A stretch of DNA of 59,743 nt, filler included, from Nitrospinae bacterium RIFCSPLOWO2_12_FULL_45_22 (GCA_001803565.1; 3 parts of 3 records of this genome joined end to end with filler, not necessarily neighbours in it); one strand, 5' to 3'. Numbered from the whole stretch's first letter, positions 8,921 to 58,966 are shown. Notes: generated by a model from the sequence alone, not told the origin. Translations and numbers: made by a program.

Positions 8921-9056
8921 TTAGCCCTGGATGAAGACGGAGCAATTTACTCCTCGCCGCTCCCTTCTCTTGCTGAACGTCTACCGGGGAAAGGATTTTT
9001 CCTTGCTGTGTCCATCCGGGGTTGCGGGGTCTAAATCTTTTTAGCTAAACCGTTAC
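8921..9056. repeat. Decayed palindromic intergenic element
   Basis: TTAGCCCTGGATGAAGAC...GTGTCCATCCGGGGTT inverted pair, then a lone GCTAAACCGTTAC end like the right TIR of the 23657 element. Confidence 0.45.
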
Positions 9057-9069
9057 GGAGGTTAAAAGT

Positions 9070-9723
9070 TTGACAGGAAAAGAGGAGACCTGGCGATTAT
9101 TTGATACCTTAGGTTTATCAGTTGACCAGGGATTAAGGGAGCGTTTTGAGAAATATATAGACGAACTGCTCCGGTGGAGCCAAAAGATAAACCTAACGGC
9201 CACTAAGAAGCCGGAAGAGATACTGAGCAACCATATCCTTTGTTCCTTGAGCTATCTAATGGCCTTTACCCCTAAGCCAGGGTTGCAGGCTATAGATATA
9301 GGTAGTGGGGCAGGCTTCCCAGGTATCCCCTTAAAGATTTATAATCCTGATCTCTCATTGACCCTCTTGGAACCCTCACAGAAGAAGCTAGCCTTCTTAA
9401 GACATATCGGGCGATTACTCCAGCTAAAGGATGTCACCTACCTGGCCATGCCTGTGGAAGGCATGGATCGAGAAAAAACCTTTGACCTGGCCTTTGCCCG
9501 GGGCTTTGGGCCGCTCAGCCGACTCGCAAGAAAAGCCGGGAGAGCCCTCCGCATGGGCGGTCTCCTCTTGGTCCGCAAAGAGAAGAATTATCTAGGAGAA
9601 ATAAAAGCGGCTGCTGCTATCCTGGCCTGGGAGGGACTCAAGCTGGACAAAGTAGTTGCTATCACCCAGGACAGACCAAGGATGGAATATTATATCTTGG
9701 CCTTCAAGAAATGTTCCACGTGA
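9070..9723 (+). CDS. rsmG: 16S rRNA m7G527 methyltransferase RsmG (GidB)
   Basis: INLTA, DIGSGAGFPGIPL; synteny. Confidence 0.95.
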   Translation: MTGKEETWRLFDTLGLSVDQGLRERFEKYIDELLRWSQKINLTATKKPEEILSNHILCSLSYLMAFTPKPGLQAIDIGSGAGFPGIPLKIYNPDLSLTLLEPSQKKLAFLRHIGRLLQLKDVTYLAMPVEGMDREKTFDLAFARGFGPLSRLARKAGRALRMGGLLLVRKEKNYLGEIKAAAAILAWEGLKLDKVVAITQDRPRMEYYILAFKKCST

Positions 9724-9727
9724 AACA
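9712..9727. promoter_or_regulatory. parS centromere-like site
   Basis: TGTTCCACGTGAAACA matches the parS consensus TGTTNCACGTGAAACA; overlaps the rsmG stop and first base of parA. Confidence 0.92.
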
Positions 9728-10503
9728 TGGGTAGGATTATTGCTATAACTAATCAGAAAGGGGGTACCGGGAAGACCACTACGGCCATTAACCTGACAGC
9801 CTGCCTGGCTGCGGGCAGGAAACAGACTTTATTGATAGACTTAGACCCGCAAGCCAATGCTACCAGCGGCATAGGGATTAACCCTAAGGAGTTAAGGCGT
9901 AGTGTCTATCACCTCCTGGTGGAGCAGACCCCTTGGGAGCAGATCTTGCGGCATACCTCCTTGAAGCACTTAGACCTTATCCCTTCTAATATAGAGCTAT
10001 CCGGTGCAGAGATCGAGCTGGTTTCTATGCCCCGGCGGGAAAAAAGGCTTAAGGAAGCCTTGATGCCACTCCAAGACCTATACGAATATATCATTATTGA
10101 CTCTCCACCCTCCCTAGGACTCCTTACTCTAAATGCCTTAGTAGCTGCCAGTGCTGTCCTTATACCCCTCCAGTGCGAATATTATGCCCTGGAAGGCCTG
10201 GGCCATCTGATGGCCACTATTCATTTAGTGAAAAAGAACCTCAACCCTGATATTGCCGTAGAAGGGATTGTGTTGACAATGCATGACCGAAGGACTACAC
10301 TGAGCACCCAGGTGATCCAGGAGGTCGTGAGCCATTTTAAGGACAAAGTGTTTAAGACAATTATTCCAAGGAATGTCCGGTTGAGCGAAGCCCCCAGCCA
10401 TGGCAAGCCCATAATCTTTTATGATATCCATTCCCCTGGGGCCCAGGCGTATATCAGTCTAGCTAAGGAACTTGTCCGCAATGCCAAAAAGAGGATTGGG
10501 TAA
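9727..10503 (+). CDS. parA: Chromosome partitioning ATPase ParA/Soj
   Basis: NQKGGTGKTT, DLDPQANAT, PLQCEYYALEG, IPRNVRLSEAPSHG. Confidence 0.97.
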   Translation: MGRIIAITNQKGGTGKTTTAINLTACLAAGRKQTLLIDLDPQANATSGIGINPKELRRSVYHLLVEQTPWEQILRHTSLKHLDLIPSNIELSGAEIELVSMPRREKRLKEALMPLQDLYEYIIIDSPPSLGLLTLNALVAASAVLIPLQCEYYALEGLGHLMATIHLVKKNLNPDIAVEGIVLTMHDRRTTLSTQVIQEVVSHFKDKVFKTIIPRNVRLSEAPSHGKPIIFYDIHSPGAQAYISLAKELVRNAKKRIG

Positions 10504-11338
10504 AGGCTTAGGTGCCTTGATTCCACAACTGGAGGATATCTCTGGTCAAGAGCCCAGAAATATCCCGCTGGCAGAGATTTCTTTGGGCCAGTTTCAGCCC
10601 CGCAAAGGGATGGACCCGGGCCGGCTGGAGGAGCTGGCCCAATCTATCAAAGAAAAGGGGGTCATCCAACCTATCATAGTGAGACGGGCTCAGAGGGGGT
10701 ATGAGCTTGTTATAGGGGAGAGGCGTTGGCGGGCGGCCCAACTTATCGGCCTTGAGAAAATCCCGGCCCTAGTCCGAGAAGCCAGTGACTCCGAAGCCAT
10801 GGAGATGGCATTAATAGAGAATATTCAGCGAGAGGATTTAAACCCGGTAGAAGAGGCATTAGCCTATCAACGCCTCCTTCTGGATTTCAACTTAACCCAG
10901 GAGCAGATAGCCGGGCGGGTAGGTAAAGACCGCTCTTCCATAGCCAATTATCTCCGCCTCTTGCGGCTGCCGGAGATAGTCAAGCGGGACCTGGCAGAGG
11001 GGTCGCTCAGTATGGGTCATGCCCGAGCCCTCCTGGCCTTACCATCGCCAGAAGAACAGGAGGCTGCACGGAACTTAATCCTAACCAGGGGATGGTCTGT
11101 AAGGCAGACCGAGGCATATCTTAAGGAGCGGAAGACAAAACAGCAGTTGTCCGCCAGCAAAAAGTCCTTAGCGAAGGATATATTTACCCGAGACCTGGAA
11201 GAAAATCTCCAGGTCGTCTTAGGGACCAGGGTAAGGATCAAGAGGAGAGGGGGGCAAGGCAAGATTGAAGTCCACTTCTCCTCTCTGGAAGAGTTAGAGA
11301 GGATAATAAGGTTTTTCCCTTCAGTTAAAGGAGGCTAA
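10481..11338 (+). CDS. parB: Chromosome partitioning protein ParB/Spo0J
   Basis: GLGKGLGALI, GERRWRA, ENIQREDLNP; ATG at 10481 preferred to TTG at 10472. Confidence 0.97.
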   Translation: MPKRGLGKGLGALIPQLEDISGQEPRNIPLAEISLGQFQPRKGMDPGRLEELAQSIKEKGVIQPIIVRRAQRGYELVIGERRWRAAQLIGLEKIPALVREASDSEAMEMALIENIQREDLNPVEEALAYQRLLLDFNLTQEQIAGRVGKDRSSIANYLRLLRLPEIVKRDLAEGSLSMGHARALLALPSPEEQEAARNLILTRGWSVRQTEAYLKERKTKQQLSASKKSLAKDIFTRDLEENLQVVLGTRVRIKRRGGQGKIEVHFSSLEELERIIRFFPSVKGG

Positions 11339-11341
11339 GAT

Positions 11342-17019: not shown

Positions 17020-18609
17020 CTATTGGGTTATCTGATCCCGGCCATATATCTGACCCAACTCTCTAACTATCTCTCCTTGAGTAACATTAGCTTTGACGGC
17101 CTCTATGACGGCCGCAAAGATATTTTTGTTTTCAGCCAGGGCCGCTGCCCGTAGCTTCTTAAGGGTTTCCTGGGCTAGGGAGTGGTTTCGTTCTTTCTTC
17201 AACCGCTTTGTCCGCCTTACCTGCTCCTCTATAAGATCCCTTCTTAATCCAGGGGGAGGAGGGGTTAATCCTTCTTCTTCCATGGTATATTTATTGACTC
17301 CTACTATTATGCGCTCTTTATTATCTATCTCTTTTTGGTATTGGTATGCCGCCTGGCTGATCTCTTTTTGCGGATATCCTTGTCTAACAGCCTCAAGCAT
17401 ACCACCCATCTCCTCTATTCGATTAATATATTCCCCGGCCCGGTTTTCTATTTCATTTGTCAGGTACTCTATATAATACGACCCACCTAAAGGGTCAATC
17501 ACATCAGTTACACCAATTTCCTCTGACAGTATGTTCTGAGTCATCAAGGCAACCCGGGCTGCTTCCTGAGTAGGAGACCATAATGCCTCATCATAAGCAT
17601 CGGTATGTAGCGACTGGACACCGCCTAGAACCGCGGCCAGAGCCTGGATAGACACTCGGGCAATATTGTTTAGGGGTTGGCACCGGGTTAGGGTAGTTCC
17701 AGAGGTCTGGGCATGGAACTTCAGCCGTAAACATTTAGGTTCGGTGATACCGAATCTTTCCCTTAATATCCTGGCCCACATCCGCCGAGCAGCCCGGAAC
17801 TTAGCTATCTCCTCAAAGAATTCATTGCCCACATCAAAGAAAAAGGTAAAGCGGGGGATAAAATCCGCGCCGTTTAACCCGCACTCCAGGCTCTTCCGGA
17901 CATATAATATGGCGCTAGCCAGGGTAAAGGCCAGGGCTTGTACTGGAGTTGCGCCTGCCTGCTGCATGTGCTGACCCACTATACTCAGGCAATTCCATTG
18001 AGGCGCATGCTGGGCACAGAACTTTATATGATCTAGCAAGATGCGTAGGTGTCCGTCTAAGGAGAAGCGAAAGAACATATTGCAACTGGTATAATGGGAG
18101 ATGAAATCAGATTGATTAGAAGTACCCCGAATACACTTCCAGGGGATACCTTGCTTCTCCGCATAGGCCAGGTACATGGCTATTAAGGCAAAAGGGCCTG
18201 GGTCATTAAACCCAGATGTAACTTTATCCAGCGGTATATTTTGGAAGGCTATCTCTAAGTCTTGCAGGGAGTCTATGGTAGTACCGCAGCGGCCCAACAG
18301 TTCTATATCTACTTCATCAGAATCATACCCCCGCGCATAAGAATTACATGGAACAAAATTGATCCCTGTGGTCCCATTTTGAAACATTATCTTTTGTCGG
18401 GCGTTAAATATTTCTGGAGTCTCATGACCTACCAGCATTCTCTTTGTCCAGGGCTGACTCCGGTACATAGTAGGGTAAACCCCTCGGGTAAAGGGGTATT
18501 GGCCCGGGTTGCCGAGAGCCTCTCCCTGGTCAAACTCTTTGGTATCGTCTGAGGTATAAAAAGGCTTTAGTGGGAAACCCGATAGGGTCTGAAATTTTTC
18601 TTTTCTCAT
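17020..18609 (-). CDS. B12-dependent acyl-CoA mutase large (substrate-binding) subunit with non-canonical active site
   Basis: [47 protein letters not shown]; start at ATG 18609 with RBS GAGGAG; no cobalamin-binding domain. Confidence 0.9.
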   Translation of the reverse strand: MRKEKFQTLSGFPLKPFYTSDDTKEFDQGEALGNPGQYPFTRGVYPTMYRSQPWTKRMLVGHETPEIFNARQKIMFQNGTTGINFVPCNSYARGYDSDEVDIELLGRCGTTIDSLQDLEIAFQNIPLDKVTSGFNDPGPFALIAMYLAYAEKQGIPWKCIRGTSNQSDFISHYTSCNMFFRFSLDGHLRILLDHIKFCAQHAPQWNCLSIVGQHMQQAGATPVQALAFTLASAILYVRKSLECGLNGADFIPRFTFFFDVGNEFFEEIAKFRAARRMWARILRERFGITEPKCLRLKFHAQTSGTTLTRCQPLNNIARVSIQALAAVLGGVQSLHTDAYDEALWSPTQEAARVALMTQNILSEEIGVTDVIDPLGGSYYIEYLTNEIENRAGEYINRIEEMGGMLEAVRQGYPQKEISQAAYQYQKEIDNKERIIVGVNKYTMEEEGLTPPPPGLRRDLIEEQVRRTKRLKKERNHSLAQETLKKLRAAALAENKNIFAAVIEAVKANVTQGEIVRELGQIYGRDQITQ

Positions 18610-18631
18610 AGCTTTTGCTCCTCGTAAAAGT

Positions 18632-18789
18632 TTAGCCACAAAAAGGCACAAAAAGCACCCGAGAATTTTAGGAGTCAGGAGACAGTAGTCAGTAGATAAA
18701 AATCTGGCTCCTGACTCCTGCATTCTCTATTATCCAACAGGTTGTGTTGGTATGATCGTTCCGCTTATTTTTGCGCTTCTTTGCGGCTA
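18632..18789. repeat. Nested palindromic element (9-mer-type shell around a 7-mer-type hairpin)
   Basis: TTAGCCACAAAAAGGCACAAAAA...TTTTTGCGCTTCTTTGCGGCTA enclosing AGGAGTCAGGAGACAGTAGTCAG...CTGGCTCCTGACTCCTG. Confidence 0.75.
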
Positions 18790-18811
18790 TATTTTAGAAG
18801 ACCTTAGTTGG

Positions 18812-19021
18812 CTAAACAATTTCAGCAACAGTAACGTTTATAGCTTTTGGGCCTTTATCTCCTTTCTCGACTCCAAATGTCACTGCATCGCCTTCATGCA
18901 AAGAATCAAAATCTATTCCTACTACCGCTGAGCGATGAAAGAATATCTCCCTTCCATCGTCGGCACTAATGAATCCAAATCCTCGGTCTCTAATTAATTT
19001 CTTTACTGTACCTTTAAACAT
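18812..19021 (-). CDS. Cold-shock domain protein
   Basis: RGFGFI (RNP1), IFFHRS (RNP2), KGPKAINV. Confidence 0.95.
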   Translation of the reverse strand: MFKGTVKKLIRDRGFGFISADDGREIFFHRSAVVGIDFDSLHEGDAVTFGVEKGDKGPKAINVTVAEIV

Positions 19022-19429
19022 TAGCTCTCCTCCCTTCCAATATAAATTTTGTGTCTGGACACACCCATAAAATTGCTTCTATTACATCCTTTACATCTCA
19101 ACTGCGCCTTCCTGTGGGATACCTGCAGGAATAGAAATATGCCCTTCCTTTTTCAGACCCGCAATTACAGATAGCCCCTTCATATATTAAGGGGTTTGGA
19201 TATACATCCCTCTTGCTGCACTGCTTTAACCCTTTTCTTCCGCAATCATTATACCACCTATTTAAACTAAAAGGGAGTAGCCCCAGGGTATAATCGTAGG
19301 TGCAGCAGGTAAAACCCTTGAGGCGAGTATGGATAAGGGCAAGGAATTTTCTGGACTTTTGAGTTGACTTAGGGCAGATAAGATGATAGAAAAGACTTTG
19401 AATAGACATACCCACTTCACTTTTTGCGC

Positions 19430-19522
19430 TTGCTTCGCTTCCCTCGCAATGACAAGATTATTTCTTCATGGTTATTGCGAGGAGCGGGTACTCACCCGAA
19501 AGGGTGGGTGGGACGGAGCAAT
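19430..19522. repeat. REP-like palindromic element (CTCGCAATGAC family)
   Basis: TTGCTTCGCTTCCCTCGCAATGAC paired with GTTATTGCGAGGAGC...GACGGAGCAAT; second partial copy at 56339-56361. Confidence 0.65.
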
Positions 19523-19553: not shown

Positions 19554-22500
19554 ATGGAAAAAAGACTTAGAGACTTAATAGAGCTACCATCGGTCAGGAC
19601 TGTTATCCAACTGTCAGACACCTCTGACCCAAAGCTGAAGAAATTAATAGGGGAGAGCTTTGTCCTTACCCAGGAGGTCTATTTTCACTTCCTCACTATA
19701 CTTCAGAGTATCAAGGAAGGGCAAGGGGAGGGGTTTTTCGTCCTGGGGAACTATGGTTCAGGTAAATCCCATTTTCTTAGTATCCTGGATCTCCTCTTGA
19801 GAGAAGAGGGGGTATGGGGATTCCTGGTGGAGCAAAGGCCGGCCCTGCAAGAGTATAGCCAATGGATCCAGCCCGGGGCATATTTAGTAGCCAGTGATAG
19901 TTTAGTAGACTATCAGGCCTGGGAGAGGTTGGAAGATATAATATTGACAAAGATACAAGAGCGTCTCCAGAGGGATTATAACATCAAGGTGGCGTATGAC
20001 TGGACAGAACAATTAAATAAAGACCTCAAACTAATACTAAAAGAGAGGTATCCGAAAGCGCTGGCCTCTTTTTTAAAGAAGATAGGCTGGGAAGATGAAG
20101 AGCCACTATTTGAGCCCAGCAATTACCCGGTATTAGAAAACCTTATCCTGGAACTGAATCTGCCTTATAAGCTACGGCCCAGCCGCCACCAGGTCTTCCA
20201 GCACCTGCAGGCCCTTTTGGAAACCGGCCCGCTTCAGGGGATAGTAATATTGTTGGATGAGCTATCAGAGTTTTTGCGCTCCAAACCTACGGGCCGGGCC
20301 TTTAACGAAGATATTCGCTTCTTGCAATTCCTGGGTGAATGGGCCAACAAACATTCCCTATGGATAATTGCCACCTTACAGGAGCGGATAGAGGATACAG
20401 GTGATATCCCACAAGAGGCCTTCAATAAGATTAAAGACCGCTACCCTAAGACCATTTCCCTTACCGCCAGGCATATAGAAGAGCTGATCCACCAGCGCTT
20501 AATCCGAAAGAAACCCGGGGCAGAGGAGATTATTAATCAGACCTATCAGGATTTTAAGACCGCCTTCTCTACCTGGATGGTTCCTCAAGATAGGTTTTAT
20601 CGCCTCTATCCCGTACATCCCCAGACCCTGAAGTTCCTTGACCAACTAAAACCCCTCTTTTCGCAACATCGGGGTATAGTAGATTTTATTCATTATCAAC
20701 TCCAGGGGGACCCCGGACGACGCATACCGGGTATGCTGGAGCTGCCGTCAGATATACTCTTAACACCAGATAGTATCTTTGATCACTTCCTCCGCCGGAT
20801 CAAAGAGCGGGTAGAAACTAATCCTTACAGCGAGGTGGTCTACAAGTATTATGAGGAGTCGGGGGAAAGTATTTTCCCTGAGCCCGAAGAACGGGCCTTA
20901 GCCCTAAAAATTATCAAGACCCTGATCCTGCAGGCCATATCTCCCTGGAGATACCAGATCAGTTTGCGGGAGCTGGCCGAGACGCTTCTCACAAAAGTTT
21001 CTACCTGGGACTCAGAGGTAAACTACCAGTATATCCGGGATATTTGCGAGAAGCTGTACAAACAAGGCTCCTATATAGGGAAAAAGCCAGGGGCTGGCCC
21101 GCTGGAAGACATTTATTATATAGACCTGGAAGCCGACATAAACCTGATAATAAGGCGTAAGGTAGAATATATTGAAAAAGGTCTCGAGCCAGGGGACTCC
21201 CGGATATTCTATCGCCTGGCCCATTATTTAGATTCTCCACAACTGCCCCTGGCATGGCTCCACCGGGAAGGGAAGGGCAAACGGGAGATAAAATGGCAGA
21301 ATACCCCCCGCTGGGGTTATCTGATATTATCCGATCTCAGAGAAAATTCTTTAGACCTTATAGCCTCTCTGATAGAGGAATTTAATAATACTGAACTGGA
21401 CTTTGTCCTTTTCCTGGCCACTCCTTTTCAACTAAGGGCTCAGCAAGAATATCTCCTGGAAACTCTCCTCCCCTATCTCCGTTCTCATGGCCCGGAGGAT
21501 ACTTCCCAACATATCCCCTTGATCTTCTGGCTCCCCGGCCCGGTAGAAGATGAAAAAGCCTTACGACGGGCTTATGCCCACTCCATATTACTGGAAGAGA
21601 GCAAAAAAGACTCTACCCAGCTAGGACAACGCCTCCATAGCCATCTGGAAGCTATTATGGCCGATGATAAGCGGGTAGTTAAAGAGGTTTTTACTGTGGC
21701 TTATTATGACGGTACTTTAATCTCTAACCTAATGGAGCAGGAGCGTTCTTTAGGGGAGATTGGGCAGTTGTCCTTTGATCGCAGCCTGCAAGAGATCATC
21801 CCGCCGGTCCTGGCCCAACGCTTCCCCAGGCATCAGCAGCTTGCCCCTTATACCGATATTTACTTGAGAGGCACAGCCCAGGAATTAATTAGCTCTTTCT
21901 TAAAACCCGGTCAGATTGTCTTCCCTAAAGGTACGAGCACCAGCCTTAAATTACTTATTGAAAGCTATCTAAGACCCCTTAAAATTATCAAAAATATCCC
22001 TAATGGCTTCCATCTGGCAGTGGATCCCAGAAAGAGCTCCATAGTAGCCTATTATTTACAGAGCTTAGAGGAGGGACGAGTAGACTTGAAAACCCTTTAT
22101 TGGCGGCTACGAAAAAGCCCATATGGAATAAGCTTTGATCAATTTCAACTCCTGACCCTAGCCCTCATCTTCAGTGGCCAGATCATACCTTATAGCCAGG
22201 GTAAGCGCAAACCCCTGGAAGAGATCACCACCCTGGACCTGGCTAATATCTCCGAGATCGGCCCGGGAGAGCTTTTATCTGCCACCCAGCAAAAGTCTCT
22301 TCAGCTTATCCCCCTTATACCACCGCAGTTAAAGAAAGAACCCCTTACTATCCAGCAACAACAGGCCATCTGGGAATATTTGAGACAGTTTAAAGAAGAG
22401 AGACTCAATGAGCTGAACCGCCTGAGGACGATTTTCGAGCACGCCCAGCAATATCCGGCAGGAAGTGGTCTGGATTGGGCAATGATAAATGAAGAGATAG

Positions 22501-23453
22501 GAAAAATGTCCCAATTTCTGGAAGCAATAGAGCCTTCTTATTCGTCGAAAGAAGGGCTGGAAAGGTTTTTGGAGAGCTACCAGCAATATCCCCTGATCGG
22601 GAGCGTTTTGCAGCAATACCAGACTATCAAAAACTTCTTTTTTAATTACCTGGATAAATATTTCCTCATTTCCCGCTACTTGCAGGAAAGGGGCTGGAGT
22701 CTACCTTCGGAGGAGAGATATCAGGCCCTTGCCGCGCAGCGGGAGGGTTTGATAGAGCGGTTAAGAGAGTCCGATAAGGTCTTCGATGAAGAATATCTGG
22801 AGGCGCTTTTTCAGGCCTTCGAACCCTTTAAAGAAAACTATATTACCTTATATCAGGAGGGGCACCGTAAGTACTGCTCTCCAGAACGATTCACTGCCTA
22901 CCATCAACTCCGTAAATCTCCTGATTATCGGCTGCTGAGTCTGTTGGCCCAAATAGAGCCTATCTCGGTAAAAGACGATCTGGTAAAGGTAGAGCGGCAG
23001 TTGGCCAGGATTGATCAATACCAGTGCCCGGGGCCCGACCCCCAGGTCTTGCAGCACCAACCCTTCTGTCTATGCGGTTACCAGTTAGGCCAGTCTCTAG
23101 ATTTAGCCCCGGTAGCGGAACTAGAAGCTATTATCCAAAAAGGGATAAGGGAATATGTCCAGACCCTCCAGGAACCTATGTATTGCCAGAAGATAATGGA
23201 TCATATAGCTGATTTGGAAGTAATAGGCGACAACCAGGTAGCTGATGTTTTAAAGAAGGTGCTGGAGATCAAGCTGGACGATCCGGGCCAGGAGACAGGA
23301 TTAGCTAACCTAATATCGCCCCGGGCAATCCAGAGTATTAATGAGGCTCTAAAGGGCCACCCACAGCCAGTAGTGGCCCGTGACCTCGATGAGCTTTATG
23401 AAAACCTGGTAGAGAGAACCTTTTCCAGAAAGAACCTTTTAAAAATCTTTAAT
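19554..23453 (+). CDS. Large P-loop ATPase, BrxC/PglY-like (DUF6079-like), 3' end lost at contig break
   Basis: Walker A GNYGSGKS, Walker B IVILLDE, YPVHP motif, long helical region, C-terminal C...CLC cluster; about 1300 aa without a stop before the gap. Confidence 0.7.
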
Positions 23454-23553
23454 NNNNNNNNNNNNNNNNNNNNNNNNNNNNNNNNNNNNNNNNNNNNTTA
23501 ATTAATTAANNNNNNNNNNNNNNNNNNNNNNNNNNNNNNNNNNNNNNNNNNNN
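23454..23553. other. Artificial contig-joining linker
   Basis: 44 N + TTAATTAATTAA (stops in all six frames) + 44 N. Confidence 0.98.
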
Positions 23554-23656: not shown

Positions 23657-23841
23657 GTAACAGTTTAGCCAAATAAAGTTTTATAAATATTTGCCACAGA
23701 TACTACGCGAAACGTAAAGCGTAGAGTGTAAAGCTTAAAACTGAGGTAATTTATTCCTTAGTTTTGCACTTTGTGCTTTAAGCCTTACACTTTCTGTAAG
23801 GCCATCCGTGGCTAAAGTTCTAATTTTGGCTAAACAGTTAC
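23657..23841. mobile_element. MITE-like element with 17-bp TIRs and 8-bp target duplication, containing two further nested palindromes
   Basis: GTAACAGTTTAGCCAAA / TTTGGCTAAACAGTTAC (16/17 match), flanked by AAAATGAA at 23649-23656 and 23842-23849. Confidence 0.85.
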
Positions 23842-25893: not shown

Positions 25894-25906
25894 GAATTTC
25901 CATTTT

Positions 25907-26057
25907 GGACGCAGATGGACGCAGATTATCCTGCTTGGGAATACAGAAGTCAGAATTCAGAAGTCAGTATGAACGGGACAAACAACTTCTCTTCTGCATT
26001 CTGACTCCTGACTACTGAATTCTAGTTATCTGCGCAAATCAGCGGAAATCTGCGTCC
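25907..26057. repeat. Composite nested palindromic element, copy A
   Basis: GGACGCAGATGGACGCAGAT...ATCTGCGCAAATCAGCGGAAATCTGCGTCC shell around CAGAAGT/CTGACTC heptamer hairpin; near-identical inverted copy at 33805-33958. Confidence 0.85.
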
Positions 26058-26078
26058 TATTATAGTATAGTAAGGAAT

Positions 26079-31616: not shown

Positions 31617-31683
31617 AGTATCAGTTGTTAGTGTCAGTGTCAGATAAGCAGATAGGTTTTTTCTGACACTAACAACTGATACT
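31617..31683. repeat. Perfect 21-bp inverted repeat between rpoD and tRNA
   Basis: AGTATCAGTTGTTAGTGTCAG (31617-31637) / CTGACACTAACAACTGATACT (31663-31683), built from short CAGTGT-like units. Confidence 0.8.
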
Positions 31684-32532: not shown

Positions 32533-32556
32533 TTAGCCACAGAGCTCTGTGGTTAA
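32533..32556. repeat. Minimal collapsed palindrome of the CCACAGAG shell family
   Basis: TTAGCCACAGAG|CTCTGTGGTTAA with no interior. Confidence 0.65.
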
Positions 32557-33764: not shown

Positions 33765-33804
33765 CTTCCCTCTCTCCTTCCTTATCTTTATTGAATTATA
33801 TTTA

Positions 33805-33958
33805 AGACGCAAATTTCCGCAGATTCATGCAGATAACTAGAATTCAGTAGTCAGGAGTCAGAATGCAGAAGAGAAGTTGTTTATCCCGTTCATACTGACT
33901 TCTGAATTCTGACTCCTGTATTCCCAAGCAGGATAATCTGCGTTCATCTGCGCCAAAA
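33805..33958. repeat. Composite nested palindromic element, copy B (inverted relative to 25907-26057)
   Basis: Reverse complement aligns end to end with copy A, including the unique loop GAACGGGA(C/T)AAACAACTTCTCTTCTGC. Confidence 0.85.
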
Positions 33959-33975
33959 AGAAAGCCCTATACTAC

Positions 33976-34852: not shown

Positions 34853-34993
34853 GCAAGCGTTCAGCCCTCAGCAATCAGCGATCAGTAACCGGGGTTAGGG
34901 ATCAGGGGTCAGCTTTCTGATCTATCTACCCTAATCTCTGATCCATGACCTCTGGTTCATCTGAAAGCTGACAACTGATCACTGAACGCTTAC
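34853..34993. mobile_element. MITE-like element (GTAAGCGTTCAG-type ends) with heptamer repeats and nested hairpin
   Basis: GCAAGCGTTCAG...CTGAACGCTTAC; flanks TTATAAAT / TTACAAAA may be a decayed 8-bp duplication. Confidence 0.7.
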
Positions 34994-37412: not shown

Positions 37413-37517
37413 ATTGTAGCAACCCCTTTGCTCCGGTTAAGTTCATCTTAACAGGAATTTTGTTTATAGCCTTTTTAAGTCTGCAAAGAGACATTAAATT
37501 TTCCCTGTGGAAAAATT

Positions 37518-37589
37518 TAAACAGGGATAGACAGGATGAACAGGATGCCCTATTTGCTTTTATCTTGTCTATCCTGTCTATCCCTGTTT
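37518..37589. repeat. 9-mer tandem palindromic element
   Basis: AAACAGGGATAGACAGGATGAACAGGATG / TATCTTGTCTATCCTGTCTATCCCTGTTT. Confidence 0.8.
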
Positions 37590-37667
37590 GGCGATCCCTT
37601 GCACGGTTACGATAAAGATTTGGGTAATAACTTTTGTCTCTCAATTTTGCTCAAACAAAATCCCTGC

Positions 37668-38519
37668 TCACGCAAACTTTTTTTGGTGGATACGAAGGAG
37701 TTCCCTTAGGGTAAGGTCCAGGTCCTCATCCCGTAATAAGGTAGTAGATATACGGGTTCGCCTAATATCGTTAGTATCTATCTCTCCCACGACCAGTTCT
37801 TCCTGAAAATAACGGCCTTTGGCTACCTGCTGGCCTTCGGGGGTAATAATCTCCGAGCCACCCCAGAAATTTATCCCGTCTTCGTACCCTACCCGGTTGG
37901 CAAAAAAGATAAATTGGCTAAAGAGTTTGGCATAAGTCTTGTTCAAAGTCTCCCAGGTATCAGAAATAACTAACTTTTCCCCCAGGTCTACCCCCCGGCC
38001 CGGGCTGCTGGATAGTACCAGCAGAAAGTCTGCCCCATCCTGGAAAGCAATATAGGCGGTAGAGGGATGCCATAGGTCCTCACAGATAAGGAGGGCGGCC
38101 CGGCCAAACTTGGAATCAAAAGCCCTTACCATCTTTCCCCGGGCAAAATAGCGTTGCTCATCAAACATCCCATAAGTAGGCAGATAGACCTTCCGGTGGA
38201 TATGCCTGACCTCCCCATCCTCTAGATAGATACCAGCATTATAAAAGAGGTGCTCTTTAGACTCCTCTACAAAACCGGTAGCAATAGGTATCTCCCGGCT
38301 CATATCCTTAAGCCTTGTTAAGATAGCCGATTCTTCCCTCAGGGCCACTTCGGGCACCATATCCCGCAAAAAATATCCGGTCAGCCCCAGTTCAGGGAAT
38401 ATCAATAGGTCTACTGCCTGGGCCTTTGCCAGGGTAAAAAGCTCCTCATATATAGCTATATTCCGGGACAAATTTCCTAAAGCAGGATTTATCTGCCCTA
38501 AGCCAACCTTCAGGATCAT
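37668..38519 (-). CDS. Nitrilase-family amidohydrolase, probable glutaminase subunit of NAD synthetase
   Basis: Catalytic E-K-C in FPEL, HRKVYLPTYGMFDEQRYF, ICEDLW; directly upstream of nadE. Confidence 0.88.
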   Translation of the reverse strand: MILKVGLGQINPALGNLSRNIAIYEELFTLAKAQAVDLLIFPELGLTGYFLRDMVPEVALREESAILTRLKDMSREIPIATGFVEESKEHLFYNAGIYLEDGEVRHIHRKVYLPTYGMFDEQRYFARGKMVRAFDSKFGRAALLICEDLWHPSTAYIAFQDGADFLLVLSSSPGRGVDLGEKLVISDTWETLNKTYAKLFSQFIFFANRVGYEDGINFWGGSEIITPEGQQVAKGRYFQEELVVGEIDTNDIRRTRISTTLLRDEDLDLTLRELLRIHQKKFA

Positions 38520-38731: not shown

Positions 38732-38865
38732 ACCACAAAGACACAAAGGTAATTTGAGTCATTAGGTTACTAGGTAATTGAGTTATTAGGTAATTGAATC
38801 ACCTAATGACCCAATGACCTGATTACCTTTTACCTCTCTCTTCGTGGTCTTTGTGACTTTGTGGT
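38732..38865. repeat. Nested palindromic element (9-mer shell, 8-mer interior)
   Basis: ACCACAAAGACACAAAG...CTTTGTGACTTTGTGGT enclosing TAGGTAAT/TGAGTCAT units and their complements. Confidence 0.8.
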
Positions 38866-39058
38866 TCATATACCATGAAAATACAAAATTTAGAAGACAC
38901 GAAAAGGTTTAAGCGTTATTATAGGACTTGAAGGCCTGGTCAGCAATATTTTTTTAGACTTTTTGCTTGCTTAATAATCTACCAATTAGTAGAATCTATC
39001 ATAATCATCTGATTCATGAGGGAAACACATCTTAGAGAAAGGGAGGAGGATTACAGCA

Positions 39059-41212: not shown

Positions 41213-41216
41213 CCCT

Positions 41217-41285
41217 TTCACCGCAGAGCGCGCAGAAATGAAAAGGAGGAAGTTTCCCCTCGTCATCCGCGTACTCTGTGGTAAA
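41217..41285. repeat. CCGCAGAG-family palindromic element
   Basis: TTCACCGCAGAGCGCGCAGA...TCCGCGTACTCTGTGGTAAA. Confidence 0.65.
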
Positions 41286-41291
41286 ATATAA

Positions 41292-41462
41292 GTAACAGTT
41301 TATGGGGTTCAGTTAACCGGGTTAAAAATAGCGCAAAGAGTAGAACCAAGGTAATTATTCCTTAGCTTTGCACTTTTAGCTTTGAGTTTTACGCTTTCAT
41401 TATTGATGTCTTAGAAGAAAAGTTTGCCTGACAACTGATCACTGACCCCGGTGACCTGTTAC
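41292..41462. mobile_element. MITE-like element (GTAACAGTT ends) with nested heptamer hairpin
   Basis: GTAACAGTTTATGGGGTTCAGT...ACTGACCCCGGTGACCTGTTAC; ends homologous to 54117-54275; interior homologous to the innermost layer of 23657-23841. Confidence 0.75.
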
Positions 41463-41509
41463 GGTATGGCTGGCAGAAAAAATAGACAGAAGGGAGGTGC
41501 TATCAGTAA

Positions 41510-44212: not shown

Positions 44213-44237
44213 CATTGTCAGATATCTTTTTTATAGT
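44209..44237 (+). promoter_or_regulatory. Putative cassette promoter Pc
   Basis: TTGACA (overlapping intI stop)-17 nt-TATAGT, pointing into the array. Confidence 0.75.
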
Positions 44238-44254
44238 ACAAGAGCGTTCTGTAA

Positions 44255-44278
44255 AAAACGAGAATAATTGTGTTATAC
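44255..44278 (+). other. Putative attI site
   Basis: AAAACGAGAATAATTGTGTTATAC: GTT core at 44272 between the promoter and the first attC. Confidence 0.5.
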
Positions 44279-44295
44279 AGAAGAATTTCTGTATT

Positions 44296-44341
44296 TTCTA
44301 GTGGAGTTGAGCGGCCCTATGGGGTCCGCTCCGCGTTAGAC
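44296..44341 (+). other. Decayed attC closing a tiny ORF-less first cassette
   Basis: Hairpin GAGCGGCCC-TATG-GGGTCCGCTC then R' GTTAGAC (44335-44341); no intact R''. Confidence 0.6.
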
Positions 44342-44386
44342 TTCTTAATTGATTTACACGCGGATAAGATATTCTGAGATTATGTA

Positions 44387-45577
44387 GTGGAGAAGGGTTG
44401 TTCAAAAGTGATTGAGACATTTATACCGTTACATGGTGCGGGAACTCACTATTTCACGGGAAGCACAGAGTATTACGATATGCTGTGGGGGCCATTCTTC
44501 CCAGGGGCAATCCATGGCATCACCTTGCTGATATCGGATACAATTATTATAGATGCTTTTTGGAGGGAATCGGTTGATCCCGGAGTTTGGGAGGATTTGG
44601 TGACTTGCAGTGTCATTAACGAACTGATACAGCGGAACATAATACAAGAGATCAATATCCGGAAGGAATTAAATCCAAATCAATTTCGGCAAGAACTGGG
44701 AGTAGGATTAGCGGAATCGATGAAATTTTGGATACGTCACAATCGAGCTGCATTACCAAAGCGCTTGATAGAAGAGACACATGATAACCCCTATGAGGCT
44801 TTGCAATTGCTGAAAACAGGACGTGTTCCTGAATCATTAAGGGTTCTTGTGCGTGGACTGGATATATCTCTGACAGGCATTTACACGAGTATTGTTGCAG
44901 GCCGTATTTGCTCAAGAATTCATGACCCACAAGGCTATTTAAGATCCTATAATTGCCTCGTACACAGTAATTGCCGGAAGTCGGTGGATGAAGAAAACGT
45001 TGACCGTATCGTAGCAATCTGTAGCGAGAGCCTCCCTGAGATTCCCATATTCTTATCAAAAGAAAACGAACCAACTGTACCTGATCCACCTGCAGCAGCG
45101 GAGGGATTTACTTTACAAGACCATCCAATGTGTGACAAAGACAAAACGATGAAGAACCTGGAAAAAATACTATCCGTCCGGGATTCTGGTGCCTGCAAAG
45201 ACCTACGCGCAACTTATAGAAGCACATTGGAACGTGTCATGAAAGCCAAAGCTGAACTGTCTTTTTATGTTGAAAAAGAAGATTTCCATAAGCAATGGGC
45301 ACTGGCGCGTGCAGAAATGCATAAGCATCTGGCTATTAGTAAGAAGTTTGAGCAATGGACCGACATCTTGACAATACCAGCATTCGTTGCTTCCATATTT
45401 CTTCCTGCAGCAGGCGCAATCCCCTTTGTCTCTTGGGCTGCTACAAAAGTAACATCTGGGTTGGCCACAAGGAAGGTTCTTATAGAATATCCCTGGCTTT
45501 CTTTGGCGGAACAAATGGGCGATCTCGGATTAGAACTAAAGAAGTCTTTTCTTAGAGATCGGGTTATAGATAATTGA
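44387..45577 (+). CDS. Cassette-encoded hypothetical protein with C-terminal hydrophobic hairpin
   Basis: 396-aa ORF filling the cassette; ILTIPAFVASIFLPAAGAIPFVSW near C-terminus; start uncertain. Confidence 0.75.
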   Translation: MEKGCSKVIETFIPLHGAGTHYFTGSTEYYDMLWGPFFPGAIHGITLLISDTIIIDAFWRESVDPGVWEDLVTCSVINELIQRNIIQEINIRKELNPNQFRQELGVGLAESMKFWIRHNRAALPKRLIEETHDNPYEALQLLKTGRVPESLRVLVRGLDISLTGIYTSIVAGRICSRIHDPQGYLRSYNCLVHSNCRKSVDEENVDRIVAICSESLPEIPIFLSKENEPTVPDPPAAAEGFTLQDHPMCDKDKTMKNLEKILSVRDSGACKDLRATYRSTLERVMKAKAELSFYVEKEDFHKQWALARAEMHKHLAISKKFEQWTDILTIPAFVASIFLPAAGAIPFVSWAATKVTSGLATRKVLIEYPWLSLAEQMGDLGLELKKSFLRDRVIDN

Positions 45578-48643: not shown

Positions 48644-48743
48644 NNNNNNNNNNNNNNNNNNNNNNNNNNNNNNNNNNNNNNNNNNNNTTAATTAATTAAN
48701 NNNNNNNNNNNNNNNNNNNNNNNNNNNNNNNNNNNNNNNNNNN
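48644..48743. other. Artificial contig-joining linker
   Basis: 44 N + TTAATTAATTAA + 44 N. Confidence 0.98.
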
Positions 48744-51940: not shown

Positions 51941-51979
51941 TGGACTTTGTCACATTTACCTGGAGCAACCCAGCTTAAC

Positions 51980-52156
51980 AAATTCTAAATCCTAAGCACT
52001 AAACCCTAAATAATATCAAAATCCTAATTCCAAATCTCAGTGTTTACCGTGTCGGTGTCCGTGTTCCGTGACCGTGAATTTTACGGACACGACAAATTGT
52101 TTTGAATTTTGGTCATTTGAATTTGTTTAGGATTTAGGATTTCGAGCTTAGGATTT
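51980..52156. repeat. Heptamer-repeat palindrome with nested hexamer hairpin
   Basis: AAATCCTAAGCACTAAACCCTAAA...TTTAGGATTTAGGATTTCGAGCTTAGGATTT enclosing CCGTGTCGGTGTCCGTG...TACGGACACGAC. Confidence 0.8.
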
Positions 52157-52158
52157 AT

Positions 52159-52737
52159 CTAATGTGACAATGTTATGTTAACTTCTAACCGTTTTATTCG
52201 GGCCTTATCGTAAGCAGCCGAGGCCGCTCTAAAATTTAATTCTGCTTGTTTATCATCAGGGAAGTTCTTGTGAATAGCCTCTTTTATAGCTGTAAGAGTA
52301 ATTATGGGATAAGCCCGGGCAAAGGCCCCTACCATAGTAGTATTGGTAATAGGCGCCCCCAGGATCTCTTTGGCAATATTATTAGCATCTACTACAGCTA
52401 TTTGGCCTACCTGCTCCATACCAGGCAACTCTTCAGGGAACAGAGGAGAATTGAATATAGCCGTACCACCTGGTTTCAACCCGTTCAGCACGTTAATGAC
52501 GTGTGGAAGACGGGCATCCAGAACCATTATGCAATCGGGCTGATAGATCTGGGATTTGAGCCGGATGGGCTGCTGATCAATCCTGACGAAAGCTGCTACG
52601 GGCGCACCACGGCGCTCGGGGCCATAAAAGGGGTTAGCCCGCACCTGATACCCTTCCAGATAAGCCGCTAAGGCCAAGATATTAGCGGCTGTCACTGCCC
52701 CCTGGCCACCGCGGCCATGTAATCTAACACTAAGCAT
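52159..52737 (-). CDS. 2-oxoacid:ferredoxin oxidoreductase gamma subunit
   Basis: HGRGGQGAVTA, YGPERRGAPV. Confidence 0.94.
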   Translation of the reverse strand: MLSVRLHGRGGQGAVTAANILALAAYLEGYQVRANPFYGPERRGAPVAAFVRIDQQPIRLKSQIYQPDCIMVLDARLPHVINVLNGLKPGGTAIFNSPLFPEELPGMEQVGQIAVVDANNIAKEILGAPITNTTMVGAFARAYPIITLTAIKEAIHKNFPDDKQAELNFRAASAAYDKARIKRLEVNITLSH

Positions 52738-54116: not shown

Positions 54117-54275
54117 GTAACAGTTCACAGGGGTCAGGGATCAGTTGTCAGGCAGGCTTTTTCTCAAAGACCTACATGGGCTATTAAACCTTCGCGCGAT
54201 CTCTAAATATTGATAACCATTCAAAATTTAAAGTCTTTTCCTGAACCCTGGTAACTGAACCCCGCGAACTGTTAT
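54117..54275. mobile_element. MITE-like element, same family as 41292-41462, inverted, different interior
   Basis: GTAACAGTTCACAGGGGTCAG...CTGAACCCCGCGAACTGTTAT; shares GCCTGACAACTGATC(A/C)CTGACCCC with the 41292 copy. Confidence 0.75.
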
Positions 54276-56361: not shown

Positions 56362-56464
56362 TACGCTAATGTTACAAAAAAAGAAATATTACTGGCAAAT
56401 GTGCATCCTTCATTTTGCCCAAAAAGTAGTTAACACTTTTCGTCAGTAAAATTATTTTGCTAAT

Positions 56465-56596
56465 TTACCACAGAGCACACAGAGATCACAGAGATACGTA
56501 CATCGTAAGGAGTGAGAAGTGAGGTGTAAGGGGGTGAGGAGTTATCGCTTTACGCCTTACTACTAACGCCTTACGGCTTTTTGCGTTTGTGGTGAA
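56465..56596. repeat. Nested palindromic element (9-mer shell, 7-mer interior)
   Basis: ACCACAGAGCACACAGAGATCACAGAG...TTTGTGGTGAA enclosing CGTAAGG AGTGAGA AGTGAGG TGTAAGG / TTTACG CCTTACT ACTAACG CCTTACG. Confidence 0.8.
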
Positions 56597-56628
56597 GGGT
56601 TAAAAAACTATCGGAGGTCATAAACATT

Positions 56629-57243: not shown

Positions 57244-57325
57244 CTCTCTCCACCTCCTCCAGGGAACATTCCCTTATCAGCCGTCAGCTTTCAGATGAAT
57301 CAATCGTGAGGCGTAAGGAGTAAGG

Positions 57326-57341
57326 AGCAAAAACTGTGCCA
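57326..57341 (-). promoter_or_regulatory. Sigma54 (-24/-12) promoter
   Basis: Minus strand TGGCAC-AGTTT-TTGCT, exact consensus. Confidence 0.85.
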
Positions 57342-57416
57342 TCTAACGGGCAAGGAGTAGAGATCAGACCCAGTGCGGCTAAAGAGACATATAGGCTTTT
57401 ACCCAACCGGGCAAAC

Positions 57417-57466
57417 TGTTAACTTATAGGTTAACATTGCTAAGGGTTAGTTTACCATGGTTAACA
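57417..57466. promoter_or_regulatory. Putative upstream activator sites
   Basis: TGTTAAC-TTATAG-GTTAACA and GTTTAC-CATG-GTTAAC palindromes about 75-125 bp upstream of the -24 box. Confidence 0.65.
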
Positions 57467-57473
57467 TCTGGGG

Positions 57474-58877
57474 TTAGTTTTTCGTGATGCCGAATTTCTT
57501 CATCCTCTTCCAGAGACTCACTCGGCTAATACCGAGGGCCTGGGCAGTTTTGGTGCGGTTCCAATTGTGTTTTTCCAAAACGACCCGCAAATGGTCTTTT
57601 GGTGAAAGGGTTGAAGAAGAGGACTGATCTTTGGGCAGCAAATCCCTTTCCGATGAGATGGTAGGGGGATGGTTCTGGTCTTTGGGTTGTATTACTTCTA
57701 TAGGTAGGTCTTCTAATTTTATTTCAGGAGCATCAGTAACTACAAAGGCATATTCCAGGGCATTTTCCAGTTCCCGTATGTTTCCGGGCCAGCTATAGTT
57801 CAAAATAGTCCTCATTACCTCTGGGGAACAACCGTAGACCTGTTTGTTATTCTCTTGATTAAATTTTTTAATGAAATGATCTACCAGGAGGGGGATGTCA
57901 TCTTTCCTTTCTCTTAAAGGGGGGACATGGATAGGGAATACCTTGAGGCGGTAATAGAGGTCCTCTCTAAATTTCCCTTGATCAACTAATTGCATCAGGT
58001 CTTTGTTAGTAGCCGAGATTATCCTCACATCAATTTTAATGGGTTTATTATCCCCCACTCGCTCAAATTCCTTTTCCTGTAATACCCGTAGGAGTTTCAT
58101 CTGGATTAACGGGCTGATATCCCCGATCTCATCCAGGAAAATGCTCCCACCATTAGCCGCCTCGAACCGACCGGCATGATCTTTGATCGCACCGGTAAAG
58201 GCCCCTTTCACATGACCGAATAGTTCGCTCTCCAGGATAGTTTCGGAGAGGACTGAGCAATTGACTTTTACTAAGGGGTAGTCCTTACGGCTGCTCAGGT
58301 AGTGGATAGCATTAGCTATAAGCTCTTTGCCGGTACCACTTTCTCCCTGGATAAGGACTGATGCATTACTATTAGCGGCCTTTTTAATCAGATCATATAG
58401 ATTGAGCATCTTATGGTTTTTACCCACTATATTCTCGAAACTATATATCTTTTTTAGCCTGGATTGCAGGTCTGTGATCTCTTCTTTAATCTTCTTGAGG
58501 GAAGTAATATCGGTTATATTTTCTATCCCACCAATAGCCTCTCCTAGTTTATTTTTAAGGATGCGGGCATTCTTTAGGATAATCACTTCCCTACCGTCTT
58601 TTGCCTGGAAGGTACATTCCTTATTTTCGATATAGCCCAGAGAAAAGAGCCCACATTTCATTATACCAGTATCACAGGAGGGGCCTTTACAGGTCTCTCC
58701 CTCAAAGATATTACAATGTTTTCCCAGGGCTTCCTCTTTGCTGTATCCGGTGATCCGCTCGGCCCCTTTATTCCAATAGGTGATCCTACCAGACAGGTCT
58801 ACGGTAAAGAGACCATCGGCCATAGTATCCAGAATGGTCTCAATATTTTCCTGCAAAAATTTTAAATCCTCACTCAA
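57474..58877 (-). CDS. PAS-domain sigma54-dependent transcriptional activator
   Basis: PAS (YWNKGAERITGYS) with several Cys, GESGTGKE, GAFTGA, C-terminal HTH. Confidence 0.93.
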   Translation of the reverse strand: MSEDLKFLQENIETILDTMADGLFTVDLSGRITYWNKGAERITGYSKEEALGKHCNIFEGETCKGPSCDTGIMKCGLFSLGYIENKECTFQAKDGREVIILKNARILKNKLGEAIGGIENITDITSLKKIKEEITDLQSRLKKIYSFENIVGKNHKMLNLYDLIKKAANSNASVLIQGESGTGKELIANAIHYLSSRKDYPLVKVNCSVLSETILESELFGHVKGAFTGAIKDHAGRFEAANGGSIFLDEIGDISPLIQMKLLRVLQEKEFERVGDNKPIKIDVRIISATNKDLMQLVDQGKFREDLYYRLKVFPIHVPPLRERKDDIPLLVDHFIKKFNQENNKQVYGCSPEVMRTILNYSWPGNIRELENALEYAFVVTDAPEIKLEDLPIEVIQPKDQNHPPTISSERDLLPKDQSSSSTLSPKDHLRVVLEKHNWNRTKTAQALGISRVSLWKRMKKFGITKN

Positions 58878-58966
58878 GCTTAAAAAAACCCTCTACTAAA
58901 AATAGCCTTTCAATATGTTTTAGCGACCCTTCTTGTCCCTTCGTGGCTAATTAGTTAGCTCAAATC

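Follow-up and report, generated by a model that had tools for sequence, protein, structure and literature searches.

Nested intergenic hairpin repeats in a Nitrospinae bacterium: a probable genome-wide load of IS66-family MITEs and small-gene cassette arms

Several described systems stand close to the elements treated here. IS66 insertion sequences have inverted repeats of ~20-30 bp, beginning with GTAAGCG, and 8-bp direct repeats (PMC11946415), and ISDge4, a member of the ISBst12 group with a single open reading frame (ORF), ends in GTAACTGCTCAGCA and is flanked by an 8-bp repeat (PMC12898284). The intervening sequences (IVS) of 23S rRNA genes (Coxiella S23p, Leptospira) contain an ORF of the PF05635 family between long inverted arms and are inserted at a hairpin tip; the Coxiella IVS stem is cut by RNase III, and ORF-less, decaying IVS forms exist (PMC4990558). 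PF05635 genes have also been reported at scattered positions among cas genes and within insertions in rRNA (PMC3936711, PMC11270868). Heptamers of the type GGGNATC are abundant, enriched in non-coding DNA and mostly transcribed in Xanthomonas and Nostoc (Rehm et al. 2015, PMC4692102). IS66 miniature inverted-repeat transposable elements (MITEs), REP/RAYT systems, heptamer repeats and ORF-bearing IVS are all already known. The present analysis deals with a window of 59,743 bases from Nitrospinae bacterium RIFCSPLOWO2_12_FULL_45_22 (GCA_001803565.1), in whose intergenic spacers an initial annotation, made from the sequence alone, had distinguished inverted elements with GTAAC/GTAAG ends (kind a), shells of 9-nt units (kind b) and hairpins of 6-8-nt tandem units (kind c). 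The window probably displays a genome-wide load of small non-autonomous elements, which belong to several unrelated mechanistic classes, have accumulated within one another and have been copied as whole composites. Kind (a) is an IS66-family MITE, a known type, and kinds (b) and (c) represent the inverted arms found on either side of GxxExxY and four-helix-bundle genes in this genome.

The resemblance to each of these systems is partial. REP/REPIN sequences mobilised with RAYT (PMC3116915) are likewise hairpin-forming, non-autonomous and intergenic, but kind (a) makes 8-bp duplications, whereas HUH transposition does not. Four RAYT matches were found in the bin, flanked by GC-rich REP hairpins, and similar hairpins stand at the centres of some composites; in the window elements no RAYT-flanking REP motif was recognised by eye, no pattern search having been run. 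Unlike the GGGNATC arrays, which are G-rich and read as quadruplex formers, the arrays found here consist of diverse units, most of them not rich in G, that pair as inverted arms. The likeness to the 23S rRNA IVS lies in the PF05635 ORF between long inverted arms, but the cassettes of this bin are located in intergenic spacers and other repeats, and their arms consist of tandem 6-8-nt units. The sole assembled 23S gene (3108 nt; model 2925) contains no inverted repeat with a score of at least 14 and no tandem array of units, and in its alignment, which covers the gene up to roughly model position 650, short expansions are all that is seen, with no IVS-like insert there. For cyanobacteria, Elhai and co-workers reportedly described in 2008 intergenic short tandemly repeated repetitive (STRR) heptamers of many sequence families and, in Nostoc, small dispersed repeats (SDR), and very small palindromic elements are said to be nested there mutually and in mini-transposons. 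To our knowledge, the Nostoc SDR were not linked in that description to GxxExxY or four-helix-bundle genes or to IS66 ends.

The window consists of three contigs (C134, C136 and C137; C numbers denote contigs throughout) of a metagenome bin of 3.67 Mb in 321 contigs, which is 85% complete and has a coding fraction of 85%. Because the contigs are joined by filler of the form N..TTAATTAATTAA..N at 23454-23553 and 48644-48743, adjacency across the joiners is not real, and the joiner spacers themselves gave rise to the six "palindromes" of greatest length in the repeat scan, which are artefacts. Sequence that recurs at least twice elsewhere in the genome is present in 14 of the 33 window spacers of at least 30 nt, in the form of 13 hairpin elements and one integrase gene fragment (44106); hairpins unique in the genome occupy two more spacers (31617 and 32533). 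More than a dozen repeat-bearing spacers had been claimed, and 15 of the 33 indeed contain unit-built hairpins, 13 of them of multi-copy families; an inverted repeat of the kind assigned lies at every one of the 14 positions that the initial annotation had named. By RNA folding, 11 of 15 segments reach z <= -4, with none of 200 shuffles as stable and z going down to -9 (starts at 18623, 23691, 25907, 31617, 32533, 33801, 34853, 37518, 38732, 41217 and 56465). The remaining four, which are not significant, are the segments at 41330 and 54117, which were cut asymmetrically, 52038 (z -1.8) and 8921 (z -1.5). The first 18 kb are without a repeat element, and the sequences at the ends of the range (8921 and ~58900) are weak and unique.

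In keeping with the earlier statement that no coding sequence is interrupted, the coding fraction of the repeated segments is at most 0.13, the exceptions being an over-called ORF start (18622-18682) and three stretches of paralogous genes, and elements do sit inside operons (panB-panC-panD, nadE-CN-hydrolase and the por genes). The methylmalonyl-CoA mutase ORF at 17020-18723 (-) probably has an over-called start, its Pfam match beginning at residue 45, and its first codons overlap the MITE at 18624. The load extends over the whole bin. A de novo inverted-repeat scan, which the initial annotation had proposed, gave 285 ungapped inverted repeats with a score of at least 16 versus 1 in a block-shuffled genome, and in 251 of the 285 the arms are mostly non-coding in a genome that is 85% coding. 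Non-coding tandem arrays number 447 at period 7 (52 after shuffling) and 236 at period 8 (30 after shuffling), with 466 distinct canonical repeat units, and 806 of the 1681 internal spacers hold sequence with at least two further copies, amounting to 23% of spacer bases.

The IS66 affiliation of kind (a) rests on its ends and target duplications. A search for GTAANNGTT...AACNNTTAC ends placed 50-900 nt apart, with at least 12 of 16 complementary end bases, returned 68 pairs. The 8-bp flanks are identical in 32 of them and agree at 6/8 or better in 45; with the flanks shifted by 10 nt, 0/68 reach 6/8. When GTAA...TTAC alone was required, 42 perfect 8-bp duplications were obtained, as against none among the 539, 217, 240 and 399 pairs of four control end motifs. 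Kind (a) comprises at least seven subfamilies, which share with IS66 insertion sequences the GTAA(G/C)NGTTCA termini, the 8-bp duplication and the occurrence of the same terminus at a DUF6444/zf-IS66/DDE_Tnp_IS66 transposase gene. Its members are gene-less and 100-280 nt long, as befits IS66 MITE derivatives; they differ from such MITEs in that their interiors are nearly all palindromic, being built of unit-repeat hairpins, and in that some copies carry a GxxExxY gene or remnant as a passenger. A 139-aa ORF (C287:20737-21156) was considered as cargo of a GTAAC element and rejected, since it merely lies between two separate MITEs.

The sole IS66-type transposase ORF of the bin, L052:1021-2706 on C275, matches NF033517 at E 3.7e-47, with 161 bits and hence below the 180-bit cut-off, and contains DUF6444, zf-IS66 and DDE_Tnp_IS66 domains. 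A GTAACCGTTCACC terminus is located 133 nt upstream of this ORF, and a 200-nt MITE with the duplication AAGAAAGA begins seven bases past its stop. Two relatives of the transposase from other phyla (L145 and L148) have GTAATAGTTTAGCCAGCTGAAG at both ends, 1.93 kb apart, which belong to the GTAATAGTTTAGCC type, while others end in GTAACCGTTCAC (L138, L140) or GTAACCGTTCAG (L139), and a 60%-identical copy in a Nitrospirae metagenome-assembled genome has a GTAACCGTTCACCCCGC end. The TnpB/Cas12f-like TNB domain (PF07282) has no match in the bin.

Kinds (b) and (c) had been likened in the initial annotation to the repeats flanking GxxExxY and four-helix-bundle genes, and both likenesses hold. TIGR04256 has 12 matches in the bin, five near-full and seven fragmentary, and inverted shells of 9-10-nt units surround 5/5 of the intact genes, the unit types being CCACAGAG, ACAGGAT, GGAGAT, CCACAAAG and CACAAGAT. 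TIGR02436 has nine matches, and 6-8-nt tandem units with inverted symmetry surround these genes; by eye, arms of this unit length are present at 8/9 loci, the exception being C129 with units of 20 nt. When 2990 ORFs were scanned blindly, inverted repeats in the flanks were detected for 12 of 341 ORFs of 100-140 aa versus 1 in shuffles, and nearly all of these ORFs are GxxExxY or four-helix-bundle members. Pfam assigns PF13366 (PD-(D/E)XK) to 5/5 of the former and PF05635 (23S_rRNA_IVP) to 6/6 tested of the latter. D62, E72 and K74 are invariant across 23 aligned GxxExxY proteins, and the predicted structure (pLDDT 95.7) has as its best structural neighbours only PD-(D/E)XK nucleases, including Hjc, at Z 7.6-6.9; as no neighbour exceeds Z 7.6, the model assigns the fold and no specific function. 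Foldseek with this model gave no match at E <= 0.001, and a sequence search of the PDB gave 0 matches. The guess that DUF559, GIY-YIG or transposase genes might be further partners is likewise supported by a DUF559 gene, a small GIY-YIG gene and the RAYT genes, all between inverted repeats. By contrast, ftsA, fabD, nadB, cheR and a cytochrome b gene were rejected as cassette genes, since each simply has a palindromic member of one and the same family on either side.

Outside this bin, 5 of 14 GxxExxY loci in six unrelated genomes have clear unit-built inverted arms, in the style of CACAAAG, CACAGAG or CACGGAT. The family is very large: a search limited to 8000 candidates gave, for one GxxExxY gene, at least 7999 matching proteins at E <= 1e-10. 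Proteins 73-85% identical to that of C232 are named, among the matches listed, from Planctomycetes, Nitrospirae and Dehalococcoidia; homologues this similar under the names of different phyla suggest that the gene has spread horizontally. In the accessible parts of the literature, no paper was found that ties GxxExxY or PF05635 genes to unit-built inverted arms.

The description of the window elements as empty derivatives of gene-bearing ones stands for kind (b), of which seven GxxExxY remnants persist in the same shells, whereas for kind (c) gene loss is only presumed. The seven fragments are internal deletions, in which the start and the last ~35 codons are kept between intact shells. By eye, two of them (C64 and C67) share a deletion junction at different sites and have GTAA-type ends and their own 8-bp duplications, ATCAACAG and GGCATCCT, which implies that an already decayed cassette moved as the passenger of an IS66-type MITE. 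Window shells of four unit types have counterparts that carry a gene or a remnant: the shell at 37518 matches the arms of the intact GxxExxY gene at C167, those at 25907 and 33801 match the arms of the remnant at C219, that at 38732 matches the arms of the loci at C84, C320 and C229, and the elements at 56465 and 32533 match the C232 locus in unit type. For kind (c), the octamers at 38757-38830 belong to the same unit family as the arms of the C124 four-helix-bundle cassette. TIGR04256 has no match in the window contigs.

Layered elements are themselves multi-copy. The composites at 25907 and 33801 are 92-94% identical over ~160 nt, 56403-56611 has a copy on C213 that is 98.6% identical over 209 nt, and a composite of (a), (b) and (c) with the loop TAAGGTAATTATTCC recurs at many of the ~48 loci carrying that (c) module. 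Independent nesting events are therefore far fewer than layered elements, and most of the nesting in the window is inherited and not the outcome of repeated targeting. The order proposed earlier, with (a) outside (b) outside (c), holds in the window but is broken elsewhere (C8, C83 and C12), and it mostly reflects composites copied as whole units.

The picture of a guild of elements that target each other's hairpin centres is only partly upheld, since some centre insertions were seen but (a) is a conventional MITE located mostly in unique DNA. For 20 of the 32 (a) copies with perfect duplications, the empty site as reconstructed is matched nowhere else in the genome; four of the 32 have junction-spanning paralogues, and only one occupies a hairpin-centre position. 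On C12, the insertion point of an IS66-type MITE coincides with the midpoint of an octamer hairpin, and 100 paralogues span the junction of the corresponding empty site. In the family of 51941 (19 copies), the hexamer hairpin is absent from at least 14 copies, whose centres consist of nothing but a loop of 0-17 nt; central hairpins of two types occur in the window copy and on C278, and the copy on C150, which is outside the alignment, has the type of the window. The CCGTGT module itself is found elsewhere alone and within other shells. A GxxExxY cassette occupies a (c)-module loop on C8, giving a (b)-armed gene within (c), an (a)-type end lies inside a (c) arm on C83, and a 27-nt GC hairpin stands beside the (c)-module loop in four copies. 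The same shells enclose variable interiors at many loci. A further MITE family, GTGCTC...GAAGCAC, was found at 13 loci (e.g., C1, C29, C302 and C310) with lengths of 130-190 nt and a matching 3-bp TWA duplication in 8 of 11 evaluable copies. Four of the 13 copies, in two host subfamilies, are inserted in the (c)-module loop, because that loop contains the CTWAG target. Some copies of this family also have a nested 16-nt GC palindrome with TTAA on both sides.

According to the mechanism proposed for these layers, a DDE transposase acting in trans would recognize the GTAA-initiated terminal inverted repeats of kind (a) and leave an 8-bp target duplication on insertion, and anything between the MITE ends would travel along. 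Since (a) supplies the transposon ends and the interior moves with them, (a) would always be outermost and identical three-layer composites would recur. A full kind (b) cassette consists of a gene for a ~120-aa GxxExxY protein of PD-(D/E)XK nuclease fold between arms of 9-10-nt units, and a full kind (c) cassette of a gene for a ~120-aa four-helix-bundle PF05635 protein between arms of 6-8-nt tandem units. Internal deletion would remove the gene and leave the arms as a bare hairpin, a step documented by remnants for (b) and presumed for (c). Hairpin loops would be favored, not exclusive, sites of further insertion, leading to concentric layering. Kinds (b) and (c) may enter extruded or single-stranded hairpin loops, by analogy with the IVS at 23S helix tips, and the stem would make such an insert harmless in transcripts.

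Several observations weigh against this reading. No intact autonomous IS66 was found in the bin (85% complete, 321 contigs), and the C275 transposase is a chimera, ending after ~165 of 284 DDE positions and continuing in frame into a C-terminal HD_5 part. IS66 TnpB (PF05717) has no match in the 85%-complete bin, and the canonical tnpA/tnpB/tnpC layout was not encountered; the lack of TnpB fits the single-ORF ISBst12-like group described in PMC12898284. Among the five kind (a) copies of the window, one has a perfect duplication, one matches at 6/8 and three have none (18624-18823, 41292-41462 and 54117-54274, whose ends or flanks are decayed). The (b) shells of the window contain no gene remnants, holding (c) hairpins or short loops instead, and only one partial four-helix-bundle gene is present (C92:28772-29020, profile positions 1-83), so that intermediates for (c) are undocumented. 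For (b) and (c) elements, no target duplication or defined ends were found. The four copies with a GC hairpin beside the loop may descend from one event, and two MITEs of the type with target-site duplications and one small GC palindrome lie in arms, not centers. Compensatory changes in the (c) module amount to 0 (12 copies, 22 pairs, 94% paired), a test that is uninformative because the family is too uniform. Finally, no strain-level pair of filled and empty alleles was found in the run contigs, metagenome contigs or 30 comparison genomes (one of the same order, the rest sharing only the domain).

The model as first put forward, in which three kinds of element insert independently, prefer each other's hairpin centers and build each composite by successive targeted insertions, is unlikely. 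It would account for the four inserts at or beside loops (the hexamer hairpin, the GxxExxY cassette, the 27-nt GC hairpin and the TWA-MITE), for the MITE at the exact octamer-hairpin center on C12 and for the different interiors in the same shells, but it is difficult to reconcile with composites copied whole, with the 20/32 unmatched and 4/32 paralogous empty sites of (a), and with the exceptions to the order on C8 and C83. Moreover, the loop positions of the TWA-MITE are explained by CTWAG, and 9 of its 13 copies are outside this hairpin module. A somewhat better, though still doubtful, explanation is that the unit-built hairpins came first and that the GxxExxY and four-helix-bundle genes are homing-type parasites of their loops, the bare hairpins being targets. 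The tight packing of the genes between the arms without conserved non-coding termini of their own, the different arm unit at each of the five GxxExxY genes, the intact PD-(D/E)XK triad read from the alignment, the 73-85%-identical homologues under names of several phyla, which would suggest horizontal gene spread, and the scattering of PF05635 genes between cas genes and in rRNA insertions (PMC3936711, PMC11270868) would all agree with this order of events. Against it, the seven internally deleted remnants demonstrate that gene loss within kept arms does happen, and no pair of empty and filled alleles at one orthologous site was found.

It is improbable that the elements are structures selected by the host, such as terminators, RNase III sites or stabilizers of operon mRNA comparable to REP sequences. 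Their positions at the pan, nadE and por operon junctions, their very stable folds and the cleavage of the Coxiella IVS stem by RNase III (PMC4990558) would be in keeping with such a role, whereas repeats occupy similar shares of the spacers in all orientations, namely 47% of the tandem, 44% of the convergent and 57% of the divergent ones. Neither terminator-like sites (18 versus 13.5 +/- 4.5 in shuffles), the elements being without T-tails, nor promoter-like sites (18 versus 17.5 +/- 4.3) are enriched, and the sole Rfam matches in the window at the gathering threshold are RNase P RNA and tRNA, none falling on the elements. Even occupancy, the lack of enrichment and the lack of an Rfam family favor selfish spread over a dedicated regulatory role, as do the 466 canonical units, the target duplications and the remnants of genes. 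Least probable of all, to the point of being hardly credible, is an origin in situ by local replication slippage of short units and palindrome formation without transposition. The highly variable unit number between copies, the pairing of arms in shifted registers and the very diversity of units would suit it, but composites of 160-210 nt recur almost unchanged (identity up to 98.6%) at loci that are not linked, individual modules are shared by different shells, dispersed copies have unrelated flanks, and (a) has target duplications.

With regard to variation between strains, 18 sequencing runs hold at least half of the sampled words of the stretch, and no RNA run is among those listed. Contigs of four runs, compared with 25000-44999, are near-identical to the window and broken at the repeats, and no clean presence/absence allele was found among them. 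The joints 33831>33938 and 38749>38844 probably derive from paralogous copies, as their sides are only ~22 nt long and lie inside repeated shells. A PanC-based search for closer strains, covering 3/64 parts of the metagenome contigs, gave nothing above 60% identity. In the relative of the same order (G001), panC and panD overlap, and the panB-panC spacer of 106 nt is without a unit hairpin, which fits lineage-specific insertion although the distance is large.

The repeated elements of the window are collected in Table 1. Among the other features of the stretch, C134 begins with the dnaA/rnpA/yidC/mnmE/mnmG/parAB region, and its end is reached by the gene of a 1299-aa DUF6079 protein, 19554-23450 (+). 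A class A RNase P RNA is encoded at 32970-33406 (+) with 329 bits; two of its hairpins extend beyond the model, by 35 and 28 nt, in a lineage-specific manner, and metagenome contigs of many organisms stack at this gene and differ in the first extension. The tyrosine-recombinase gene at 43347-44199 appears to be split, its ORF containing the N-terminal SAM-like domain only, and the 100 nt after the ORF, which have three repeats in the genome, resemble by eye the rest of the recombinase in another frame. The sole reverse-transcriptase domain of the bin is at C291:14072-14662, within a 1003-aa open frame.

Table 1. Repeated and hairpin-forming elements of the window, with nested parts on separate lines
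Coordinates	Type	Ends, shell and interior	Target duplication, copies and position
18624..18823	kind (a), IS66-type MITE	GTAAAAGTTTAGCC end; right end decayed	no target duplication; family copies with 8-bp duplications on C12, C300 and C320
inside 18624..18823	shell and hairpin	CACAAAAAGG shell; AGTCAGG heptamer hairpin (~18668-18728)	
19422..19522	unclassified dispersed repeat	CGCAATGAC..GTTATTGCGAGG inverted motif; GC-rich hairpin	5 other copies
23657..23841	kind (a), IS66-type MITE		perfect 8-bp target duplication AAAATGAA
inside 23657..23841	shell (b) and abundant (c) module	GCCACAGAT/ATCCGTGGC shell; loop GAGGTAATTTATTCCTTAG	
25894..26060	shell around heptamer hairpin	ACGCAGAT shell, arms 25907-25927 and 26037-26057; CAGAAGT heptamer hairpin 25944-26010	
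31617..31683	stand-alone kind (c) hairpin	perfect 21-nt arms of 6-nt units	between rpoD and tRNA-Met
32533..32556	minimal kind (b) palindrome	TTAGCCACAGAG/CTCTGTGGTTAA	unique
33801..33959	second shell and heptamer-hairpin composite	ACGCAGAT shell	panC-panD junction
34853..34993	kind (a), IS66-type MITE, GTAAGCGTTCAGC subfamily	first base changed; arms continue as NNTCAGC heptamers	flanks match 6/8; panB-panC junction
37439..37679	three-layer composite	outer inverted repeat 37439-37465 / 37653-37679	
37506-37610	inner element of 37439..37679	decayed GTAA-type end	
37519-37589	gene-less counterpart of the C167 GxxExxY cassette	ACAGGAT shell	
38732..38869	shell (b) around hairpin (c)	CCACAAAG shell; octamer hairpin ~38757-38830	
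41217..41283	kind (b)-like hairpin	CACCGCAGAGCGCGCAG..CGCGTACTCTGTGG	unique
41292..41462	kind (a), IS66-type MITE, around (c) module	GTAACAGTTTATGGGG end; loop AAGGTAATTATTCCTTAG	no target duplication
51941..52175	element with own terminal inverted repeat	TTGACAATGTCACATT type; AAATCCT heptamer arms	19 near-full copies aligned
52040-52097	hexamer hairpin	CCGTGT units	nested at center of 51941..52175
54117..54274	kind (a), IS66-type MITE, GTAACAGTTCACGGGG subfamily	last base lost; subterminal GGGGTCA-type heptamers	no target duplication
56403..56611	asymmetric 60-nt module, shell (b) and hairpin (c)	CCACAGAG shell; GTAAGGAGTGAG hairpin	
57274..57324	short heptamer array	AGGAGTA/AAGGCGT	10 other copies

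Conceivably, the GxxExxY protein, a minimal PD-(D/E)XK nuclease comparable in size to Hjc, and the proteins with a four-helix bundle drive a structure-targeted mobility directed at hairpin or cruciform loops of any sequence, an idea that is put forward tentatively and with more doubt than confidence. If it were true, the cassettes would bring or extend long unit-repeat stems, RNase III would remove these stems from transcripts, and operon junctions, transposons and rRNA helix tips could be colonized without harm, giving rise to nested palindromes; bacterial heptamer repeats, rRNA IVS and two very large, unexplained families of tiny genes would then be aspects of one mechanism. As the repeats occupy about half of the intergenic spacers, break assemblies and sit in operons, they influence how the genome evolves as well as how metagenomes are binned. 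Much of the puzzle disappears once the layers are sorted by mechanism, since an ordinary IS66-type MITE explains the spread of the composites. Because it contains cassettes in full, partly deleted and empty form, the bin is well suited to the study of how such cassettes decay and move.

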